From positions 1 through 56,935 of the forward strand of contig CANLLM010000004.1 of the NCBI GenBank assembly GCA_947491825.1: 56,935 bases of DNA. Reading direction: 5' to 3'. Of the stretch, positions 6,948 through 16,834 are shown one piece after another. The position numbers and the translations under genes are program-made. Under the pieces are notes generated by a model. The model did not search any database and had not been told where the DNA came from. It worked only from the letters and a program-made list of their open reading frames with translations. Position 1 is the stretch's first letter. Each line of letters opens with the position of its first letter. Origin of the DNA: Bacteroidota bacterium (GTDB lineage: Bacteria; Bacteroidota; Bacteroidia; UKL13-3).

Positions 6948-8144
6948 ATGTACGGTAAATTACAACAACACTTACAACAAGAATTAGCTGATATTAAAGC
7001 AGCAGGATTATATAAAAGCGAGCGCATTATTGTATCGGAGCAGGGGGCAGAAATTACCTTAAATACTGGTCAAAGTGTGTTAAATTTTTGCGCCAATAAT
7101 TACTTGGGTTTATCATCTCATCCGCGTGTTAAAGAAGCTGCTAAAAAAGCTTTGGAAACCCATGGTTTTGGTGTTAGCAGTGTACGTTTTATTTGTGGTA
7201 CCCAAGATATTCATAAAGCATTAGAGAAAACCATTGCCGATTTTTATGGTACGGAAGATACCATTTTGTACGCAGCTGCTTTTGATGCAATGGGGGCGTT
7301 TTTGAACCTTTGTTTCAAGAGGCGGATGCCATTATTAGTGATGAGTTAAATCATGGCAAGTATTATTGATGGTGTGCGTTTGTGTAAGGCACAACGCTAC
7401 CGTTATAAAAACAATGATATGGCTGATTTGGAAACGCAATTAATTGCTGCCAACGAAAAAGGTGCTCGGTTTAAAATTATTGTAACCGATGGCGTGTTTA
7501 GCATGGATGGTTATGTGGCACAAATGGATAAAATTTGTGATTTAGCCGATAAATACGATGCGTTGGTCATGACGGATGAATGCCATAGTGCAGGATTTAT
7601 TGGTAAAACCGGAAGAGGCGTTCCTGAGTTGTGCAATGTAATGGGTCGTGTAGATATAATCACTGGAACCTTAGGCAAAGCTTTAGGCGGTGCAATGGGA
7701 GGATACACCACAGGTAAAAAAGAAATTATTGAATTGTTACGTCAACGCTCTCGCCCTTATTTATTTAGTAACTCATTGGCTCCGGCAATTGTTGGTGCAA
7801 GTATTGAAGTATTTAAATTGTTAAACGAAAGCACTGCATTACGTGATAAGTTAGAGATGAACGTTAATCAGTTTAAAGCTGGCATGCAAGCAGTTGGATT
7901 TGATTTACGCGGTGGCGCTAGTGCAATTGTTCCTGTCATGTTGTATGATGCAAAATTAGCGCAGGAAATGGCCAACCAATTACTAGATGAAGGCATTTAT
8001 GTAACAGGCTTCTTTTATCCTGTGGTACCTAAAAACTTAGCACGTATACGTGTGCAACTTTCTGCAGCACATGAGCCGCATCATATTGAAAAAGCCATTG
8101 CGGCATTTACCAAAGTGGGTAAAGAGTTAGGTGTTGTAAAATAA
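6948..8144 (+). pseudogene. kbl: Glycine C-acetyltransferase (2-amino-3-ketobutyrate CoA ligase), interrupted by a -1/+1 indel pair at ~7289 and ~7355; may be a sequencing artefact in an intact gene
   Basis: [41 protein letters not shown] (PLP lysine). ORFs 6948-7349 and 7353-8144 share a frame; the missing [22 protein letters not shown] is encoded in the shifted frame at 7289-7354. Confidence 0.85.
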
Positions 8145-8170
8145 TAACCAACAAAAATTAGTTTTTGCCG

Positions 8171-8194
8171 AAAACCCGCCAAGTGCGGATTTTT
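8171..8194 (+). terminator. Probable intrinsic terminator after kbl
   Basis: AAAAcCCGC-caagt-GCGGaTTTT hairpin with a T-tract. Confidence 0.6.
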
Positions 8195-8201
8195 CTGCGT
8201 A

Positions 8202-8262
8202 TTAACAATTTGGTAACAAATTATTGATGCTGCATTAACTTAAGGATAACTTTGGTTTAATC
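8202..8262 (+). promoter_or_regulatory. Six 11-bp-phased hexamer repeats (PhoB/OmpR-family-like binding array)
   Basis: TTAACA 8202, GTAACA 8213, TTGATG 8224 (degenerate), TTAACT 8235, ATAACT 8246, TTAATC 8257. Confidence 0.65.
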
Positions 8263-8263
8263 G

Positions 8264-8290
8264 TTTGAAGTGAAAGGTGGGGTACTTTTG
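8264..8290 (+). promoter_or_regulatory. Bacteroidota housekeeping-sigma promoter of the TBDR gene
   Basis: -7 element TACTTTTG at 8283-8290; upstream TTTG at 8264-8267; ATG at 8316. Confidence 0.6.
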
Positions 8291-8315
8291 TTCACGTTTT
8301 CACACACCTAAACAA

Positions 8316-11252
8316 ATGAGAATCACTTTACAAAAATTAATTACAACTGTTATAGCCTTAACCATCGGACTAGCAGCTTTTGCGCAAACCGGAAAAATTA
8401 ACGGAAAAGTAATCGATAAGAAAAATGGAGAAGAACTAATTGGTGTTTCGGTTAGTGTAGAGGGAACTTCCTTTGGTGCTTCAACCGACTTAGAAGGGAG
8501 ATTTAATATAGTTAACCTAAAGCCAGGCACATACAACCTAAATCTAAGTTATGTGGGATACATCAAAAAGCAATTGGTTGGTATAGTGGTTAAAGGAGGC
8601 GAATCATCAACCATCAATGTGGCATTAGAAGGGTCGTCAAAAGAATTGAGTGAAGTTGTAGTACAAGGTGAATTGAAAAAAGAAAGTGCCAGTGCATTAT
8701 TAATTCAACAAAAAAATTCAGTTACAGTCTCTGATGGTATTTCAGCTGATGTAATAAAAAAATCACCAGATAATACCACTAGTGATGCAATGAAACGTAT
8801 TAGTGGTACATCAATACAAGATAATAAATTTGCGATCATACGTGGTTTGAACGACCGTTATAATTCAGCATATATTAATGGTGCACCCCTTCCTAGTACT
8901 GAATCTGATCGTAAAGCATTTTCATTTGATATTATTCCTTCTAACATGGTCGATAATATGGTGATTACCAAATCAGGGTCTCCAGATTTGCCTGGTGATT
9001 TTACCGGAGGATTAATTACCATCAATACCAAAGACATTCCAGAAAAAAAATTCATTTCAGTGGGTTTTGGAACCAGTATTAATAGTATAACTACTGGGAA
9101 AAGTGGAATACAATCTACAACAACTGGCAAAACTGATTGGCTTGGTCTTGATGATGGAACGCGTAAAGTTCCCACAGATATCGCAGGACGTGGATTTTAC
9201 CATACTCAAACTATAGCTGAAAAAGCAGCGGCAAGTCAAAAATTTCAAGACAATTGGAGTACTAATCGCATATCATCACTTCCATTAAATTACTCCTTAC
9301 AAATTGCTGGTGGTAACATGTTTAAGTTTGGTAAGAAAAATGAGTTTGGATATATTTTATCTGGTTCATACAATAATAGTTACCGAAACACCTCCGTAGA
9401 TAGAAACAGATTCAATAAACCCATGATTGGGGATGAAAATCAGTTATTATCATCTTATACTGATGAAACAACAAAACATGAATTGCTTACAGGTGCTATG
9501 GCTAACTTTGGATTAAAGCTAAACGGAAATCATAAGTTTAGTTTTAAAAATGCTTACACCATCAATACAGAAAATGTTGCTCAAATAAGAACTGGGATTG
9601 ATAGTTATTTAGATGAACAAGTACCATTGGTTAAGAACACTTATCTATCTTATCAACAAAACCAATTATTTACTTCTCAATTAATAGGTGAACACTTTTT
9701 AACTAAATCGAAGCTTAAAGTAAAATGGGTGTTGAACTACAATAAAATTAAAAGAGATATTCCTGATTTTAGAAGGTTCTCTACACGTTCAACATTAATG
9801 GATCCTTCCACAGGTGAGTACACCCCTTATGGAGCTCAAGTATCAAATAGTATTGATATTACCCAAACGGGCAGGTTCTTTTCTACCTTAGATGAAAACA
9901 TCAAAAGTGCTGGCGCTGACTTTCAACTACCTATCGGTTTTTTTACAGGAAAAAAAATAAAAACAGTTGTTAAGGTTGGTGGATTCATTCAACAACGTAA
10001 AAGAGACTTTCAAGCACGTGCTTTTGGTTATCGTCTGCGTTTTGTTAGCGATCCCAATAGCGTGTACAATTACCAAAAATTTATACAGGGTAACCTTGAT
10101 ACCTTATTTAGTAAAAATAAGTTAAATGATACATTATATATTGACGAGGATTTTAGACCTCAAGATGTATATTCAGCTGAGTCGAACCTAAAGGCAGCTT
10201 ATGTAATGTTTGATCAACGTATGTTTAGTAGGTTTAGGGTGGTTTACGGTGCTCGTTTTGAATCATACCAGCAAATATTAAATACGTTTGAGTTAAATCA
10301 ATCACCACCAAAACCATTAACTATCGATACCACATTTAACGATATTCTTCCTTCGATTAACCTTACTTATGAGTTAACAGAAAAAGTTAATTTACGTTTA
10401 TCTGGTTTCAGAAGTTTGGCCAGACCTGAATTTAGAGAATTAGCTCCTTTTGCGTTTTATGATTTTAACCTGAATACCACCGTTAGTGGTAAGCCAAATT
10501 TGGCCCGCACAAGGATCAACAATTATGATTTTAGGTTTGAGTATTTCCCTGGCGAAGGGCAATTGATTTCTGGATCATTGTTTTATAAAGAATTTACCAA
10601 TGCCATAGAAAGCTTAAATGAATTACCAGGAAGTGATCCTCTGCTCTCTTATACAAGTGATGCAAATGCAACCAATTATGGCTTAGAGGTTGAAATCAGA
10701 AAAAACTTTGACTTTTTGGATAAGTTATTTGGCACCAAATTGTTGTTTAGAAACTTTATTTTCACCATGAATTATGCACGTATTTTTTCAGAGGTTAAAA
10801 TTGAAGGATCAGCTGCAGCTGCAGGTATAGGAACCCGTCCATTGCAGGGGCAATCACCAAGCATTATCAATTCAAGTATACAATACTATAATCCCAATAG
10901 TGGTTTGTCGGTTGCCATATTTGTTAACCGTGTAGGTAGACGTATTGCATTTGTAAGAGAAAAAAATGGCTTGATTCCTGATTTATGGGAGAATCCTAGA
11001 ACTGTGGTTGACCTTTCTATCGCACGTAAAATTTACAAAGGGTTAGAGGCTAAATTCACTATTGGTGATTTATTGGCTCAAGACTTAATATTTTACCAAG
11101 ACAACAACAAAAACGGTAAATTTGATGATGTAAGCATTAAACAACGTATAGACTCAAATATTCCAGCATCGGTAAAAGCAAATTTCGACAATACTGTTTA
11201 TCGCTTTACCAATGGTTACAATGTTAGCATTGGAGCAAGCTATAAATTCTAA
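8316..11252 (+). CDS. TonB-dependent receptor (N-terminal carboxypeptidase-regulatory-like domain, plug, beta-barrel)
   Basis: Signal peptide from ATG 8316 (the GTG at 8277 lies upstream of the -7 element); GKVIDKKNGEELIGVSV, plug motif SDAMKRISGTSIQDNKFAIIRGLNDRYN, LARPEFRELAPF, NYDFRFEYFP, C-terminal ASYKF. Confidence 0.92.
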   Translation: MRITLQKLITTVIALTIGLAAFAQTGKINGKVIDKKNGEELIGVSVSVEGTSFGASTDLEGRFNIVNLKPGTYNLNLSYVGYIKKQLVGIVVKGGESSTINVALEGSSKELSEVVVQGELKKESASALLIQQKNSVTVSDGISADVIKKSPDNTTSDAMKRISGTSIQDNKFAIIRGLNDRYNSAYINGAPLPSTESDRKAFSFDIIPSNMVDNMVITKSGSPDLPGDFTGGLITINTKDIPEKKFISVGFGTSINSITTGKSGIQSTTTGKTDWLGLDDGTRKVPTDIAGRGFYHTQTIAEKAAASQKFQDNWSTNRISSLPLNYSLQIAGGNMFKFGKKNEFGYILSGSYNNSYRNTSVDRNRFNKPMIGDENQLLSSYTDETTKHELLTGAMANFGLKLNGNHKFSFKNAYTINTENVAQIRTGIDSYLDEQVPLVKNTYLSYQQNQLFTSQLIGEHFLTKSKLKVKWVLNYNKIKRDIPDFRRFSTRSTLMDPSTGEYTPYGAQVSNSIDITQTGRFFSTLDENIKSAGADFQLPIGFFTGKKIKTVVKVGGFIQQRKRDFQARAFGYRLRFVSDPNSVYNYQKFIQGNLDTLFSKNKLNDTLYIDEDFRPQDVYSAESNLKAAYVMFDQRMFSRFRVVYGARFESYQQILNTFELNQSPPKPLTIDTTFNDILPSINLTYELTEKVNLRLSGFRSLARPEFRELAPFAFYDFNLNTTVSGKPNLARTRINNYDFRFEYFPGEGQLISGSLFYKEFTNAIESLNELPGSDPLLSYTSDANATNYGLEVEIRKNFDFLDKLFGTKLLFRNFIFTMNYARIFSEVKIEGSAAAAGIGTRPLQGQSPSIINSSIQYYNPNSGLSVAIFVNRVGRRIAFVREKNGLIPDLWENPRTVVDLSIARKIYKGLEAKFTIGDLLAQDLIFYQDNNKNGKFDDVSIKQRIDSNIPASVKANFDNTVYRFTNGYNVSIGASYKF

Positions 11253-11277
11253 ATAACAACCTAATTTTACAGAATAT

Positions 11278-11299
11278 AAAGCCCTTCAAAGGGCTTTTT
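11278..11299 (+). terminator. Intrinsic terminator after the TBDR
   Basis: AAAGCCCT-tcaa-AGGGCTTT followed by TT. Confidence 0.75.
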
Positions 11300-11396
11300 C
11301 TGTATAGTTAAGTTAGATATTTAATTAATCATACTTCTTTTATGCTAGTTATTGATTCCTACTTCACCGCGAATTGAAACCCATACTTACCAAACC

Positions 11397-11452
11397 TTAA
11401 CTTTTAATTAATATTAAAGTAAGCATTACTAAATATACTGCATTTAATTTTG
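11397..11452 (+). promoter_or_regulatory. Three 11-bp-phased hexamers plus -7 promoter element of the T9SS beta-helix gene
   Basis: TTAACT 11397, TTAATA 11408, GTAAGC 11419; TAATTTTG at 11445-11452; same 26-bp box-to-(-7) distance as the TBDR promoter. Confidence 0.6.
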
Positions 11453-11468
11453 TGCAAAACTTATATAT

Positions 11469-14400
11469 ATGAAAAAACTCAACTTATTATTGATTACCTT
11501 GGTTTTTGCTGTAAGTGCAGTATTTGCGCAAAAGGTAAGGACCATTTCTGGTAGTATTACCAATGATGTTACTTTCTTCAACGATACCATTTATACTTTA
11601 GATGGTTATGTTTTTGTTAAAAACAATGCAACACTTACCATTCAACCAGGTACCATTGTTAAAGGTAAAGCCGGTAATAAATCTACATTGATTATTACCC
11701 GTAATGGTAAAATTAATGCAAATGGTACGTCTAATCAACCCATAATTTTTACATCTGAAAAGCTGGCTGGCCAACGTGCAAAAGGTGATTGGGGCGGTTT
11801 GGTAATTTTAGGTAAAGCGATACTTAATCGTCCTACTGATTGCTCAACTTGTCCAGGTTCTGCAATTGCTGCTAACGAGGCAGGAATACAAAATGCAATA
11901 GAAGGTGATATTGACAATGCAAACGGTGATGGTTTATACGGAGGCACTGATAGTACTCACAATGCAGGTATTTTAAAATTTGTTCGTATAGAATTTGCTG
12001 GAACGGTAATTACACCAGGTAACGAAATCAATGGATTAACCATGGGTGCTTTAGGTTCAGTTACTACCATTGAAAATGTTCAGGTTTCATTTGCTGATGA
12101 TGACGGATTTGAGTGGTTTGGTGGAAGTGTAAATGCAAAATGGTTAGTTTCTAACCGCAACGTAGATGACGACTTAGACGTAGATTTTGGTTTCAAAGGT
12201 AAAGTACAATTTGCCATCGTATTGCGTGACTCTAATCTATATGATATTGGAAGTGGTCCAACTACAAATGGTTTTGAATCAGACAATGATGGATCAGGAT
12301 CTGAGGCTAAACCATTTACCGACCCAACATTTTCAAATGTTACTGTAGTAGGTCCATTAGCTAACGGAACTGCATTAAGTACAGCAAACTCATTCCAAAA
12401 CGGAGCCCGTATCCGCAGAAACTCATCAACCTCTATATTCAACTCTATTATCATGGGCTACCCTGATGGATTGTTTGTAGATGGTACCCGTACAGGACAA
12501 AAATTTGCCACTGATTCAATGATGTTCCGCAACAATATTTTAGCCGGTAACTTAAGAGCTGTAAACAACACTTCATCTAATGTTGCTACTGTTAGATCTA
12601 ATATTTTTAGTCAAGGTACTGATTCTTTGTTTTCTGCAAATGGCGTGTTAACAAACGCTTTTAACTATACCAATCCTAATTTTTTACCTGCTACTGGTTC
12701 TGTTGCTTTATCAGGTGCTGCATTTACAGCCCCTCGTATAGCTGATAGTTACTTTACACCAACTACATACCGTGGTGCTATGGGTACTGATGATTGGACA
12801 AAATGCTGGTGTAACTTTAACCCAAATGCAGCCAATTATGATATAGCTCCATTGAATAACTTCGTTCCTGTTGTCGATGCAAGTAATGATACAACCATTT
12901 GTATTGGTAAAACCGTAACAATTGGTAAAGATTTGGGACTAGTAGGTTACAGCTATTCATGGTCTCCAACTGCGGGTTTAAGCAATGCAACAATTGCTCG
13001 CCCTGTTGTAAATATTAATACAACAACCAAATATTTTGTAACAGTAACAGACAATGCAACTGGTTGCAAAAAAACAGATAGTATCACTGTAACGATTTCT
13101 CCATTGCCGACTGTTGATTTCAGTTCATCATTAGGTTCAAATGGTTCGGTTTCTTTCTTAAATGCTTCTACCAATGCTGCAACTTACAGCTGGACTTTTG
13201 GCGATGGGGGAACTTCAACTGTTGCTAACCCAACTAGACAATATTCTACAAATGGAACTTTTCAAGTAAAACTAATTGTAACAAGTGCAAACGGATGTGT
13301 AGCACAAACAATCAAACAAATTGTAGTAACAGGTATTAATTCTCCGGTTAAAGCATTATCAGGTGAGATTACAACAAATACCACTTTATTCCGTGATACG
13401 ATATATACCTTAAATGGTTACGTGTTTGTTAAAAACAATGCAACATTAACCATTCAATCAGGTACCATTATTAAAGGTGGTGCAGATAAAGCATCGTTAA
13501 TCATTACCCGTAATGGTAAAATTGAGGCAAATGGAACTAAAAATCAACCTATTGTTTTCACTTCGGCAAAAGCTGCTGGTCAACGTGCCAAAGGTGATTG
13601 GGGAGGTTTAATCATTTTAGGTAAAGCCAAAGTTAATCGTCCTACAGATTGCTCAACTTGTCCTGGTAGTGCAATTGCTGCTAATGAGGCAGGTATACAA
13701 AATGCAATAGAAGGTGATATAGATAACGCAAATGGCGATGGCTTATATGGTGGTAATGATGATACGCACAATGCTGGTACTTTAAAATACGTTCGTTTAG
13801 AGTTCGGAGGAACAGTAATCACCCCAGGTAACGAAATCAATGGTTTAACCATGGGTGCTTTAGGTTCAGCTACCACATTAGAAAATATTCAAGTATCCTT
13901 TGCTGATGATGACGGATTTGAGTGGTTTGGTGGTAATGTAAATGGTAGAAACTTAATTTCATTCCGTAACGTAGATGACGATTTAGATGTTGATTTTGGA
14001 TTTTCTGGTAAGGTACAAAACGCCATTGTTTTGCGTGACTCTAATCTATATGATATTGGAAGTGGTCCAACTACTAACGGTTTCGAATCTGACAATGATG
14101 GATCAGGAACAGAATCTAAACCATATACTGATCCAACATTCTCTAATGTTACAGTTGTTGGCCCATTAGCTAACGGAACTGCATTAAGCACATCAAACTC
14201 ATTCCAAAACGGAGCTCGTATCCGCAGAAACTCATCAACCTCTATATTCAACTCTATTATCATGGGCTACCCTGATGGATTGTTTGTTGATGGTACCCGT
14301 ACAGGACAAAAATTTGCCAATGACTCTATGATGTTCCGTAACAATATCTTGGCTGGTAACTTAAGAGCTGTTAACAATAGCTCTGCTAATGCTTCATCTG

Positions 14401-15473
14401 TAAGGGCTAGCATTGTTGCTAACGGTTGCGATACATTAACCTCAGCAAATGGTGTGTTGGGAAATCCATTCAACTATACCAATCCTAACTTTGCTCCAGC
14501 TCCAAGTTCAATTGCATTATCTGGAGCAAGCTTTACAGCAAATCGTTTAAATGATCCTTTCTTCAAGCAAACTTCACATAGAGGTGCTTTAAGTGCTAAT
14601 CCTGATAGCAACTGGACAGACTGCTGGTCAAATTTCGACCCGCAATTAGAGGGATATACATCTGCTCCATACAATAGACCAGGTGCTTTAGCCGGATTTA
14701 CAGCAACAAACGGAACTGGTAGAACAGTAAACTTTACAAATACTTCTTCAAATGCAGTAGCCTATTTCTGGAACTTTGGTGTTACCAATTCAACAACTGA
14801 TACCAGTGTTGCAGCTAACCCTTCATTTGTCTATCCATCAAACGGAAGTTATAATGCTACCCTTACAGCCTTAAGTCCATGTGGTAAAGCTACTTTTGGT
14901 GTAACTGTTGTAGTAAACGATGCTTCTTCTAACCCGGTTGCTGATTTCACATATGTGCAAAGCGCAACAACTGGTTCACGTGAGTTTACTTTCACTAATA
15001 CTACTGACGAAAAAGGATTTGTAACTACTTACCGCTGGGATTTTGGAGTAGCGTCTTCATCAGCTGACACTTCAACAGTTAAAAATCCGGTGTTCAATTT
15101 CCCTGCTAGTGGATCTTACACGGTTACTTTAATTGCAACAGGTACTGCTGGTGCTGATACCATTAGTAAAGTGTTAAATGTAACTCCAGTAGGTATTAAA
15201 GAAATTTCTTCTACAATTAGTAACGTAACATTGTATCCAAATCCAACTTCAAACATCACCAACGTTTCGTTTGATTTAACTGAGAATACAAATGTTGCCA
15301 TTAACTTATATGATATGAGCGGAAGACTTGTAAAAGCAATTCCAACTCAATACTTAACTAGTGGTAATAACAGCATAGCTATTGAAACATCAGAAGTAAA
15401 TGCAGGTGTATACTTTGCAAACATTACTACCGATAAATTTAGCAAGACATATCGTTTGGTGATTATTAAATAA
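11469..15473 (+). CDS. T9SS-secreted protein: two tandem beta-helix domains of the TBDR-associated family, an Ig/SprB-like repeat, three PKD domains and a T9SS type A CTD
   Basis: Signal VFA|Q; duplicated GDWGGLxILGKA...EFxG...NEINGLTMG...DDDGFEWFGG...DDDLDVDFG...GFESDN domains 1809-1812 nt apart; PKD motifs YSWTFGDG, YFWNFG, YRWDFG; CTD LYPNPTS...GVYFANI...LVIIK. Confidence 0.88.
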   Translation: MKKLNLLLITLVFAVSAVFAQKVRTISGSITNDVTFFNDTIYTLDGYVFVKNNATLTIQPGTIVKGKAGNKSTLIITRNGKINANGTSNQPIIFTSEKLAGQRAKGDWGGLVILGKAILNRPTDCSTCPGSAIAANEAGIQNAIEGDIDNANGDGLYGGTDSTHNAGILKFVRIEFAGTVITPGNEINGLTMGALGSVTTIENVQVSFADDDGFEWFGGSVNAKWLVSNRNVDDDLDVDFGFKGKVQFAIVLRDSNLYDIGSGPTTNGFESDNDGSGSEAKPFTDPTFSNVTVVGPLANGTALSTANSFQNGARIRRNSSTSIFNSIIMGYPDGLFVDGTRTGQKFATDSMMFRNNILAGNLRAVNNTSSNVATVRSNIFSQGTDSLFSANGVLTNAFNYTNPNFLPATGSVALSGAAFTAPRIADSYFTPTTYRGAMGTDDWTKCWCNFNPNAANYDIAPLNNFVPVVDASNDTTICIGKTVTIGKDLGLVGYSYSWSPTAGLSNATIARPVVNINTTTKYFVTVTDNATGCKKTDSITVTISPLPTVDFSSSLGSNGSVSFLNASTNAATYSWTFGDGGTSTVANPTRQYSTNGTFQVKLIVTSANGCVAQTIKQIVVTGINSPVKALSGEITTNTTLFRDTIYTLNGYVFVKNNATLTIQSGTIIKGGADKASLIITRNGKIEANGTKNQPIVFTSAKAAGQRAKGDWGGLIILGKAKVNRPTDCSTCPGSAIAANEAGIQNAIEGDIDNANGDGLYGGNDDTHNAGTLKYVRLEFGGTVITPGNEINGLTMGALGSATTLENIQVSFADDDGFEWFGGNVNGRNLISFRNVDDDLDVDFGFSGKVQNAIVLRDSNLYDIGSGPTTNGFESDNDGSGTESKPYTDPTFSNVTVVGPLANGTALSTSNSFQNGARIRRNSSTSIFNSIIMGYPDGLFVDGTRTGQKFANDSMMFRNNILAGNLRAVNNSSANASSVRASIVANGCDTLTSANGVLGNPFNYTNPNFAPAPSSIALSGASFTANRLNDPFFKQTSHRGALSANPDSNWTDCWSNFDPQLEGYTSAPYNRPGALAGFTATNGTGRTVNFTNTSSNAVAYFWNFGVTNSTTDTSVAANPSFVYPSNGSYNATLTALSPCGKATFGVTVVVNDASSNPVADFTYVQSATTGSREFTFTNTTDEKGFVTTYRWDFGVASSSADTSTVKNPVFNFPASGSYTVTLIATGTAGADTISKVLNVTPVGIKEISSTISNVTLYPNPTSNITNVSFDLTENTNVAINLYDMSGRLVKAIPTQYLTSGNNSIAIETSEVNAGVYFANITTDKFSKTYRLVIIK

Positions 15474-15492
15474 TAAGGTTTAGGTAAAACAT

Positions 15493-15524
15493 AAAAAAGC
15501 CTCGCAGCAATGCGGGGCTTTTTT
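15493..15524 (+). terminator. Intrinsic terminator after the T9SS gene
   Basis: AAAAAAGCCTCGCA-gcaa-TGCGGGGCTTTTTT. Confidence 0.8.
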
Positions 15525-15540
15525 ATGTTTGGAATTTCTG

Positions 15541-15676
15541 GGGCGTTCTCCCGAGGTTACGCTTCACTCCACTCGGGATTGCGCTGCGCTTCTCCCAGGT
15601 TACGCTGTGCTTCACTCGGGGTCGGGTGTTCCGCTATACTATGCTGCGCTTCGGTGTCGCTGCACCCCCTAACGCG
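15541..15676. repeat. GC-rich palindromic dispersed-repeat-like element with an internal tandem duplication
   Basis: TCTCCCGAGGTTACGCTTCACTCCACTCGGG (15547-15577) recurs as TCTCCCAGGTTACGCTGTGCTTCACTCGGG (15591-15620); GC content is far above the flanks. Confidence 0.6.
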
Positions 15677-15692
15677 TGTTTATCGTGAAATA

Positions 15693-16043
15693 CGAAACGT
15701 AGTTCAGCGGAGCTAAATTTTAAATCCGAAAAACGAAAAACGAAATGAGTTGCGCTGAACTTTGTCTTGAAAGTCGGAGACCAAGTTCAGCACACTTAAA
15801 AAGCGTCAGACCTTTGGGTATTATACCCTCCGTGAAGCTCTGCGTAACCTCTGTCAAACTTTGTGAAATTAGTTAGTTGAATTGTTAAGGTTTAATTAAC
15901 TTAAACTCTATAATTACTCTTTAAACGCAATAGCCACTTCGAGTGATTGCTGCAAAGGAGATGAGTTGGGGCAATGATATCGAGAATGGATTGTTAAATT
16001 ATAGTTCTAACCTTCTCTTTTAGCTCCGCTGAACTAGGTTTCG
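15693..16043. repeat. 25-bp inverted repeat pair (MITE-like ends or oppositely oriented REP copies)
   Basis: CGAAACGTAGTTCAGCGGAGCTAAA (15693-15717) versus TTTAGCTCCGCTGAACTAGGTTTCG (16018-16043), 24/25 complementary. Confidence 0.7.
15742..15817 (+). repeat. 76-bp direct repeat, copy 1
   Basis: 64/76 identical to 16423-16498 (last 44 nt 42/44); internal GCTGAAC...GTTCAGC stem. Confidence 0.85.
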
Positions 16044-16069
16044 ATACAATTCGAGTACTCGGGTCACAA

Positions 16070-16311
16070 CAGACGCTAAGGTCTGTGCCTGCTCGAACAG
16101 GCTGTAACTTTGCGAAGCAAACTCCTTTACTCTAATAAACTCGAGACTATGCATCTCTTTTCACTCTGCGAAAAACCTCCTTCCGAACCTTCGGAACCCT
16201 ATGTGGTAAAAAAGAAAACGCAGAGGTGGGTGAATAGTCTTGCGAAGATTCGAGCATAGTCGCATACAAAATTGAGAGCAGGCAGACCATTGGTACAGAC
16301 CGAAGCGTCTG
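16070..16311. repeat. Nested inverted-repeat (concentric foldback) element
   Basis: Pairs 16070-16085/16296-16311 (14/16), 16086-16094/16276-16284 (9/9), 16145-16152/16254-16261 (8/8), 16164-16170/16219-16225 (7/7), inner hairpin 16181-16196. Confidence 0.65.
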
Positions 16312-16422
16312 CTAGCAATGCCAAAGGCATTGGGGAGTGTTTAACTTATGGAACGTAATCAACGTTTGAACGAAAAACTATCGTCTTCCTTTGAAGGAAG
16401 ATAAGAGATGGATGTTTTGTTA

Positions 16423-16498
16423 GAAATGAGCTATGCTGAACTAAGTTTCAGAAATCGGAGACCAAGTTCATCACACTTATAAAGCGTCAGACCTTTGG
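16423..16498 (+). repeat. 76-bp direct repeat, copy 2
   Basis: 681 bp downstream of copy 1. Confidence 0.85.
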
Positions 16499-16771
16499 CG
16501 TTAGCAAAAAAATAGTATAAGCTAATTAAATTGTAACCAACCGTACTGACGCGAAATGCGTCTGACGGTTTTAAATTCAAACTCCATTTAAAAACCAACT
16601 TGGAAAAAAGCGTTTAATTGTTTTAGTTAGCTGAACCAAATTTTAATCATTAGCCCTATGAAAATAACATCACCTTACGCTTTAACTTCGTCTATACCAT
16701 CAAATTTGGTGTGATAAGCGAAGAAAAAATTTGTCTATAAACTAGAACGTTTTCTATTTCGTAACCAAACG

Positions 16772-16800
16772 AAAAAGCCCCACAATCATGTGAGGCTTAT
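16772..16800 (-). terminator. Intrinsic terminator of the M1 peptidase gene
   Basis: AAAAAGCCcCACA-atca-TGTGaGGCTT; U-tract on the minus strand. Confidence 0.7.
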
Positions 16801-16834
16801 TTGCTCTGAATATTTTGTTAATACAATACCTTAA

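Follow-up and report, generated by a model that had tools for sequence, protein, structure and literature searches.

Pho Boxes in Described Systems

For Proteobacteria, Firmicutes, Actinobacteria, and cyanobacteria, Pho boxes belong to textbook knowledge. Direct repeats spaced by one helical turn are a hallmark of OmpR-family winged-helix regulators, for which autoregulation is usual. This type of switch is familiar, yet it is sparsely described for Bacteroidota, and the searchable literature yielded no Pho-box description for the phylum beyond one motif obtained by sequencing of affinity-purified DNA (DAP-seq). Here, we analyzed two arrays of hexameric boxes in a stretch of 56,935 nucleotides from a Bacteroidota bacterium (contig CANLLM010000004.1, in the following the window; the genome carrying it is termed G000, and relatives are labeled G0xx). 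One array precedes a gene for a TonB-dependent receptor (promoter 1), and the other precedes the gene for a secreted exoprotein that follows it (promoter 2). We conclude, with a probability of about 0.77, that the boxes at 8202-8262 and 11397-11424 are Pho boxes for a phosphorylated regulator of the OmpR/PhoB family, substituting for the -33 promoter element under phosphate scarcity.

In Bacillus subtilis, the core binding region of PhoP is said (Liu & Hulett; Eder et al.) to consist of TT(A/T/C)ACA hexamers with an 11-bp period upstream of Pho promoters. The arrays of the window resemble it in the near-identical hexamer (TTAACA), in the direct repeats one helical turn apart, in their location on the coding strand, right before the core promoter, where they replace the upstream promoter element, and in the predicted binding of an OmpR-family regulator. 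They differ in that three boxes (six at the receptor gene) are present instead of four and in that TAnnTTTG, the -7 element of Bacteroidota, takes the place of the -10 hexamer as the element to which the array is locked. The cyanobacterial SphR box reportedly (Suzuki et al. 2004; Su et al. 2007) comprises three tandem 8-bp repeats of PyTTAAPyPy(T/A) with an 11-bp period. Three repeats per unit, the TTAA core, and the period are all shared with the window, and the first box of promoter 2 in its context CTTAACTT fits the SphR consensus exactly. The phylum and the promoter type are different, and the proximal box is far more degenerate here. The E. coli Pho box consists of two 11-bp direct repeats located 10 bp upstream of the -10 element, and PhoB contacts region 4 of sigma-70 (PMC9306846). 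The likeness to the window lies in direct repeats of 11 bp in the place of the upstream promoter element and in two predicted traits of the window's system, a phosphorylated OmpR-family activator and autoregulation of the regulator gene. The repeats are CTGTCAT in E. coli versus TTAACA here, and two are found there versus three to six here. Moreover, E. coli senses phosphate via PstSCAB-PhoU, whereas the genus of the window is without pstC and PhoU was not found in G000; from B. subtilis, the host differs in these traits and in being Gram-negative.

Within the phylum, the phoBR cluster of Flavobacterium johnsoniae is the closest counterpart. It encodes PhoR (Fjoh_0543), PhoB (Fjoh_0544), a receptor with Plug and CarbopepD_reg_2 domains (Fjoh_0545), and the lipoprotein "FII" with a pectin-lyase fold (Fjoh_0546), a relative of a C. 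crescentus lipoprotein under Pho control; Fjoh_0545 and Fjoh_0546 were up by log2 8-10 on phosphate depletion, and the pair was repressed under nitrogen and iron limitation (PMC8115612). In the window, too, a receptor with Plug and CarbopepD_reg_2 domains is followed by a beta-helix-type surface or secreted protein, and the receptor pair is linked to phoB-phoR in many Bacteroidota. In contrast to F. johnsoniae, the second protein of the window is not a lipoprotein but is large, is secreted by the type IX secretion system (T9SS), and carries PKD domains, and phoBR lies elsewhere in G000. In one Flavobacterium metagenome-assembled genome (MAG), the regulator and kinase genes are divergent from the receptor gene and an exoprotein homologue, which is the gene order of F. 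johnsoniae. On the basis of this synteny, the receptor and exoprotein of the window are very probably the counterparts of Fjoh_0545 and Fjoh_0546. The DAP-seq motif belongs to PhoP of Riemerella anatipestifer; its most conserved bases are TTTAACA, PhoP bound its own phoPR promoter and that of a TonB-dependent receptor in gel shifts, and PhoPR was up-regulated on phosphate starvation (PMC9603813). Its authors likened the motif to that of ArcA and listed mostly non-phosphorus targets. Phylum and TTTAACA core agree with the window; the motif is a single one, and neither an 11-bp phased array nor a register to a -7 element is described in the accessible text. Phosphate induction and regulator binding at the two promoters of the window are predicted by analogy with F. 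johnsoniae and R. anatipestifer.

Architecture of the Two Promoters

The receptor gene (8316..11252, plus strand) encodes 978 amino acids with CarbopepD_reg_2 and Plug domains and is of the TonB-Xanth-Caul type as judged from Pfam and NCBIfam. The exoprotein gene (11469..15473, plus strand) encodes a T9SS-secreted protein of 1334 amino acids, as supported by Pfam, NCBIfam, and tblastn synteny. Between them lies an intrinsic terminator that belongs to the receptor gene (11278..11302, plus strand), composed of AAAGCCCTT-CAAA-GGGCTTT and a T run, and relatives carry a terminator in the same position behind the receptor gene. The exoprotein gene therefore needs its own promoter.

Promoter 2 comprises, all on the plus strand, box 1 (TTAACT, 11397..11402), box 2 (TTAATA, 11408..11413), box 3 (GTAAGC, 11419..11424), a spacer of 20 nt that is fixed in length, not in sequence (11425..11444), and the -7 element TAATTTTG (11445..11452), an octamer of the TAnnTTTG type 24 nt before the ATG. 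Box 3 is proximal to the promoter, is the most degenerate of the three, and overlaps the place of the -33 TTTG. Promoter 1 contains six hexamer boxes in register with an exact 11-bp period (8202..8262, plus strand): TTAACA at 8202, GTAACA at 8213, TTGATG at 8224, TTAACT at 8235, ATAACT at 8246, and TTAATC at 8257. Its -7 element TACTTTTG (8283..8290, plus strand) lies 33 nt before the ATG and is conserved in relatives. The initial annotation of this DNA had placed the boxes of promoter 2 11 bp apart and had claimed an identical 26-bp distance from the third box to the start of the octamer at both promoters. Both statements are exact, the distance running from 11419 to 11445 at promoter 2 and from 8257 to 8283 at promoter 1. 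The motif as originally stated was weak, nTAAnn being the sole core common to the six boxes, three per promoter.

In both arrays, the boxes form direct repeats in tandem, one about every 11 bp, a period that is kept in relatives, and both arrays are fixed beside the core promoter in the place of a -35/-33 element. A TAnnTTTG octamer near the start codon is present at both promoters, as in sigma-A promoters of Bacteroidota; the TTTG that belongs about 19 nt upstream is not. At this canonical N19 position, AGCA is found in promoter 2 and ATCG in promoter 1, which fits activator-dependent promoters. Promoters 1 and 2 have no sequence in common apart from the boxes. Thus, they are not the result of a duplication.

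Frequency of the Geometry in the Host Genome

Genes were called crudely, with home-made calls, across the whole of G000, and 301 intergenic TAnnTTTG sites located 15-170 nt from a start codon were taken as the promoter set. The averaged profile of these promoters exhibited a weak TTTG at -23 to -20 (the -33 element, 19-nt spacer) and no 11-bp periodicity, which means that phasing of boxes is not common to promoters at large. An UP-like feature or a phasing by DNA curvature was ruled out by the same profile. TAA at -25, -36, and -47 occurred in exactly two of the 301 promoters, namely promoters 1 and 2, and every other register or period was represented 0-1 times. The intergenic DNA (both strands, about 2 x 392 kb) contains 48 copies of the pattern TAA-N8-TAA-N8-TAA, and only two of these, again promoters 1 and 2, are combined with TAnnTTTG at +26. 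The intergenic DNA of G000 has an A+T content of ~70%, and TAA is present at ~5% of positions.

The initial annotation had argued that two promoters with the same motif, period, and register are hard to explain by chance in AT-rich DNA. This held: the geometry is lacking in the other 299 promoters, the boxes are conserved, and in 150,000 dinucleotide-preserving shuffles per upstream region the geometry arose with frequencies of 1.5e-4 (promoter 2) and 3.3e-5 (promoter 1), values that are optimistic as chance probabilities because the motif had been defined after it had been seen. Scores of at least 13.8 bits with a three-box weight matrix, which was partly trained on these sites, were reached by 1.7e-5 of intergenic registers. 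A scan of 8100-11600 with the sigma-70 consensus gave 18 matches versus 14 expected and is uninformative for this phylum; of its output, only the terminator, there placed at 11278-11297, was of use. The decisive evidence against chance is the conservation in relatives.

Conservation in Related Genomes

The six-box array of promoter 1 was present in the orthologous upstream regions of 17 relatives, with TAAC cores that were (nearly) invariant and 5-nt spacers that varied. This conservation reaches other genera, as exemplified by G017 with TTTACA, TTAACA, CTAACA, CTAACC, GTAACC, and CTAATC. For promoter 2, ten sequences were aligned, that of G000 and those of nine relatives from several genera that share the downstream gene. 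Each of the ten has three boxes, exactly 20 nt of spacer, and at +26 an octamer of the TAnnTTTG type with 0-1 mismatch. The boxes and octamers read TTAACC/TTAATA/GTAAGT and TAAATTTG in G005, TTAACG/TTAATG/GTAAGT and TAAGTTTG in G012, TTAACA/TTAACA/TTAAAG and TTTGTTTG in G024, TTAACC/TTAACT/TTTAAA and TACTTTTG in G023, ATAACA/GTAACA/TTATTC and TAAATTTG in G017, and TTTGCA/ATAACA/TTAACA and TAGGTTTG in G009; G002, G011, and G015 have the same layout. Across the ten promoters, box 1 occurs as TTAACn, ATAACA, TTTACA, or TTTGCA, and box 2 of the relatives as TTAATr, TTAACn, GTAACA, ATAACA, or ACAACA. Box 3 is GTAAGy in the closest relatives and TTAAAG, TTTAAA, TTATTC, GTAACA, or TTAACA elsewhere. 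Mean column identity was 0.74 for the boxes, 0.52 for the 20-nt spacer, and 0.45 for the upstream flank, figures that took in two misregistered rows (G011 and G015); an anchored re-alignment covered eight of the ten. The three boxes before the exoprotein gene are real, conserved docking sites, and their predicted ligand is most likely a phosphate-starvation regulator.

Four relatives of the same genus, G006, G016, G010, and G003 (loci L009-L012), presented a different picture behind the promoter. By eye, the receptor upstream region was highly conserved, including terminator, six boxes, -7 box, and leader. The receptor protein was 59-60% identical to that of the window, as compared with 96% in G005 and 88% in G002, and neither an exoprotein start nor an array was found within 270 nt downstream of the receptor gene. 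The pattern resembles two "alleles" of the receptor, or a swap of the cassette that lies behind a conserved promoter.

Distribution in the Phylum and Helical Phase

Of 41 related genomes, 33 possess a receptor orthologue. When named genomes were searched with a profile, 80 loci emerged in Chitinophagaceae, Saprospiraceae, Sphingobacteriaceae, Flavobacteriaceae, Crocinitomicaceae, and others, and in 71 of them tblastn detected a homologue of the N-terminal exoprotein domain behind the receptor. In 44 of 75 loci, the 200 nt before the receptor gene include a three-box array of at least 11 bits, against a chance expectation of ~0.6% per upstream region. The spacer between receptor and exoprotein genes contained such an array in 34 of the 55 loci in which it measured at least 45 nt. 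In another 15 loci the gap is shorter than 45 nt, and there the two genes presumably form one operon.

Exact TAnnTTTG octamers downstream of arrays of at least 13 bits were situated at offsets of 15, 26, 37, or 48 in 52 of 63 cases, counts that contain overlapping windows and related promoters and for which the positions out of phase act as a built-in control. The four offsets represent a single 11-bp phase. What the initial annotation had noted for two promoters, a shared motif, period, and register, thus holds for this element in general.

A separate architecture was seen in Pedobacter, Chitinophaga, and relatives (L099, L103, L104, L110, L111, L113, L123, L129, L136, L146, and L158). There, in-phase boxes run on to -15 and even -4, six to seven boxes stand in a row, and GTAATA merges into the -7 octamer. 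This differs from the 20-nt gap of the window's lineage.

Candidate Regulator

A weight matrix derived from the aligned boxes was applied to the upstream regions of G000. Nine regions scored at least 14 bits versus 1.15 expected from shuffles, and five scored at least 16 bits versus 0.4. The top match (18.3 bits), TTAACA-N5-TTAACT-N5-GTAATA, lies directly upstream of a response-regulator gene (C28:21051-21725). Its product combines Response_reg and Trans_reg_C domains (OmpR/PhoB type), and a gene for a HisKA/HATPase kinase is next to it. The array before the regulator gene is invariant in 21 genomes of the family, in which the flanks cannot be aligned, and in G019 and G021 a TAnnTTTG-type octamer follows exactly at +26 from the last box (TATTTTTG and TAATATTG, respectively). 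Three unrelated promoters have the same plan.

The best NCBIfam models for the regulator were PhoB (TIGR02154, 229 bits) and Bacteroides PhoB (NF053854, 220 bits), and those for the kinase were PnpS and PhoR. Of the four full-length OmpR-type regulators of G000, this protein matches PhoB best, and it resembles PhoP/YycF in its N-terminal part. In 16 of the 80 named loci, the receptor gene has an orthologue of the regulator gene within 4 kb, frequently as its divergent neighbor, and the two adjoin each other in G034 and G027; the promoter of G027 reads TTAACA-N5-TTAACC-N5-TTCATC, 20 nt, TTGTTTTG. All 33 receptor-bearing genomes possess the regulator, and all four genomes without the regulator are also without the receptor. 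This linkage supports the pairing of the regulator with the arrays. Altogether, the evidence points to a PhoB/PhoP-type response regulator as the probable binder.

In addition, a stretch CGAATGTTACA upstream of the regulator gene of G000 (C28:21726-21800) is strongly conserved.

Predicted Regulon

In G000, further arrays precede the gene for an OlsF-like enzyme that makes aminolipids free of phosphorus (NF052615, 414 bits), a gene for a secreted metallophosphoesterase with a twin-arginine translocation (Tat) signal, and the gene for a T9SS exoprotein of 2423 amino acids with choice-of-anchor-I, phytase-like, and 5'-nucleotidase domains. Together with the receptor and its ElpS/FII-like exoprotein, these genes give the set the content of a Pho regulon. 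Some high-scoring matches (C15, C51, and C57) look unrelated. Four matches were set aside as probable false positives: C15:27729 is part of a palindromic operator before a helix-turn-helix (HTH) gene, C51:3120 is just 8 nt from an ATG, C57:9617 is 208 nt from a metF-like gene, and C31:2912 has no gene in the same direction. A T9SS protein (C65:5516-7399) that appeared PhoX-like by eye was rejected after Pfam and NCBIfam had matched its secretion tail only.

In relatives from other families of the class, canonical pstS and pstC are preceded by the same element. In G029, pstS follows TTAATA-N5-TTTACA-N5-TTAACA with TAGCTTTG at +15, and before pstC come four boxes, a 20-nt gap, and TATATTTG. The pstS gene of G032 also lies behind an array, here with the octamer at +37. 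No array of at least 12 bits was detected near pstS in G004 and G031. G004 is filed in the genus of the window; it has pstSCA and lacks both this regulator and the receptor. The PhoB/PhoR-like pair and its boxes are kept in the genus despite the missing pstC. A PstS-like gene of G000 (C1:65212-66210) was considered and rejected as a Pho test case; it sits within an exbB-exbD-tonB cluster and, like its orthologues, has no array.

In two relatives from other families, a single island holds the receptor orthologue along with pstS-pstC-pstA and the regulator gene in one or two copies (G028:C59:11861-20846 and G032:C2:171112-188521). The repeated palindromic word at C15:27700-27830 of G000, TTAACATTTGTTT / AAACAAATGTTAA, precedes a gene for an HTH protein of 149 amino acids and appears to be the operator of some other protein akin to phage repressors.

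Evaluation of Alternative Explanations

Several points weigh against an assignment of the arrays as Pho boxes. Box 3 of promoter 2 (GTAAGC) is weak, and a regulator that binds as a dimer would sooner call for an even number of boxes than for three. Promoters of relatives cannot be counted as independent samples, and the weight matrix was built from the same loci that it ranked. In the genus of the window, a poor -7 match, GAATGTTA, occupies +26 of the regulator's own promoter. Regulator and kinase score under the curated NCBIfam cut-offs for PhoB and PhoR. PhoU was not found in G000, pstC is absent from 14 of 15 genomes of the genus, some of which are 98-99% complete, and boxes before pst genes could be looked for only in other families of the class. 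Finally, the orthology with Fjoh_0545 and Fjoh_0546 rests on synteny and not on direct sequence comparison.

The low PhoB score, the lack of Pst in the genus, and the failure to find PhoU in G000 would also suit arrays that are real sites for an OmpR-family or similar regulator responding to a signal other than phosphate, be it redox as with ArcA, envelope stress, or another nutrient, or arrays bound by another of the genome's three other OmpR-type regulators. Read on the other strand, the box is TGTTAA, an ArcA half-site, and the ArcA likeness and mostly non-phosphorus targets in the Riemerella report (PMC9603813) point in the same direction. We nevertheless regard this explanation as unlikely. 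It does not account for arrays before canonical pstS and pstC in relatives, nor for targets in G000 that comprise phosphatases, a nucleotidase/phytase-like protein, and a synthase of phosphorus-free lipids; the best match of the genome precedes the most PhoB-like regulator, and the syntenic pair of F. johnsoniae is specifically induced by phosphate depletion and repressed under nitrogen and iron limitation (PMC8115612).

Still less probable is an operator for repression, at which a protein over the -33 region would block RNA polymerase until a signal releases it. The last box does overlap the -33 position, and the in-phase boxes of Pedobacter and Chitinophaga extend to -15 and -4, over the core promoter. 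However, both promoters of the window are without the -33 TTTG at N19, as is seen in activator-dependent promoters, the strict helical phase and the fixed 20-nt gap are what a contact with polymerase predicts, and it is general knowledge that PhoB, PhoP, and SphR sites of such a layout activate. Hardly any weight falls to the view that TAA recurs periodically by chance in AT-rich DNA, or that the boxes reflect a generic promoter feature, UP-like or due to curved DNA, without a specific protein. Such an origin could draw on a shared core of merely nTAAnn, on the A+T content and TAA frequency of the intergenic DNA, and on the post hoc definition of the motif. Set against this are the restriction of the geometry to two of 301 promoters with no 11-bp signal in the averaged profile, the shuffling frequency of 1.5e-4, and the enrichment before orthologous genes in the named loci of the phylum (44 of 75 versus ~0.6% expected), and chance is already refuted by the base-specific conservation of the boxes across genera in which the spacers diverge.

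Proposed Mechanism and Its Implications

In the mechanism that we propose for the Pho boxes, the array would act as a set of tandem direct-repeat binding sites, with the consensus TTAACA and an 11-bp period, for a phosphorylated regulator of the OmpR/PhoB family. The regulator would be supplied by C28:21051-21725, beside the gene for a PhoR-like kinase, elsewhere in the genome. It would occupy the three boxes on one face of the helix with the proximal box over the -33 position, and under phosphate scarcity the bound regulator would replace the -33 contact and recruit RNA polymerase. Transcription is predicted to start ~5 nt after the octamer, i.e. at 11457-11459 with a leader of ~11 nt, and near 8295 for the receptor gene. 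Because the terminator splits the receptor and exoprotein genes, the second gene would have its own copy of the array. Receptor and exoprotein would be co-induced as a phosphorus-scavenging pair, and six boxes at the former versus three at the latter may set different thresholds or strengths. Since pstC is missing from the genus and PhoU was not found in G000, the Pst-PhoU relay cannot be the phosphate-sensing route of this kinase, and the kinase would therefore sense phosphate in another way.

A further generalization, which we give even odds, is that a Pho-box "grammar" not found in the searchable literature extends through the Bacteroidota. Its unit would be three TTAACA-type boxes, doubled at strong promoters; their distance to the phylum-specific -7 element would keep to the 11-bp phase, and the box next to the promoter would replace the -33 element. 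In the freshwater genus of the window, it would govern a Pst-less regulon centered on the receptor and the secreted beta-helix protein, each with its own array, and a kinase that senses phosphate otherwise. If this grammar is true, a contact of the regulator with the unusual sigma-A of Bacteroidota is implied. The rule "three TTAACA boxes, 20 nt, TAnnTTTG" would make the phosphate-starvation regulon readable from sequence in uncultured Bacteroidota of freshwater, soil, and gut. It would mark the receptor and the secreted beta-helix protein as core phosphorus-scavenging genes that are co-regulated from two separate promoters. Two questions become testable in cultured relatives, namely which substrate the receptor imports and how PhoR senses phosphate without Pst-PhoU.

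Further Features of the Exoprotein, the Host Genome, and the Window

The exoprotein of 1334 amino acids is built from an N-terminal beta-helix-like domain without family assignment, three PKD domains, and a Por_Secre_tail. Comparison of its N-terminal 560 amino acids with PDB sequences gave no significant match. The host genome assembly comprises 2.5 Mb in 148 contigs and is 88% complete, and its closest named relatives are unclassified freshwater "Bacteroidetes bacterium" MAGs. The DNA of the window has the traits of Bacteroidota, namely 36% G+C, T9SS sorting domains, and CarbopepD_reg-type receptors.

Behind the exoprotein gene, 1.36 kb (15474-16834) separate convergent genes and are without an open reading frame (ORF) of at least 110 amino acids. 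Upstream of the receptor gene, at 6948-8144, a class I/II aminotransferase (KBL/AONS-like) is broken into two ORFs. About 60 nt (7291-7352) are correct only in another frame, and an in-frame stop is located at 7347. The gene thus carries two compensating frameshifts, which reflect either an assembly error or a pseudogene.

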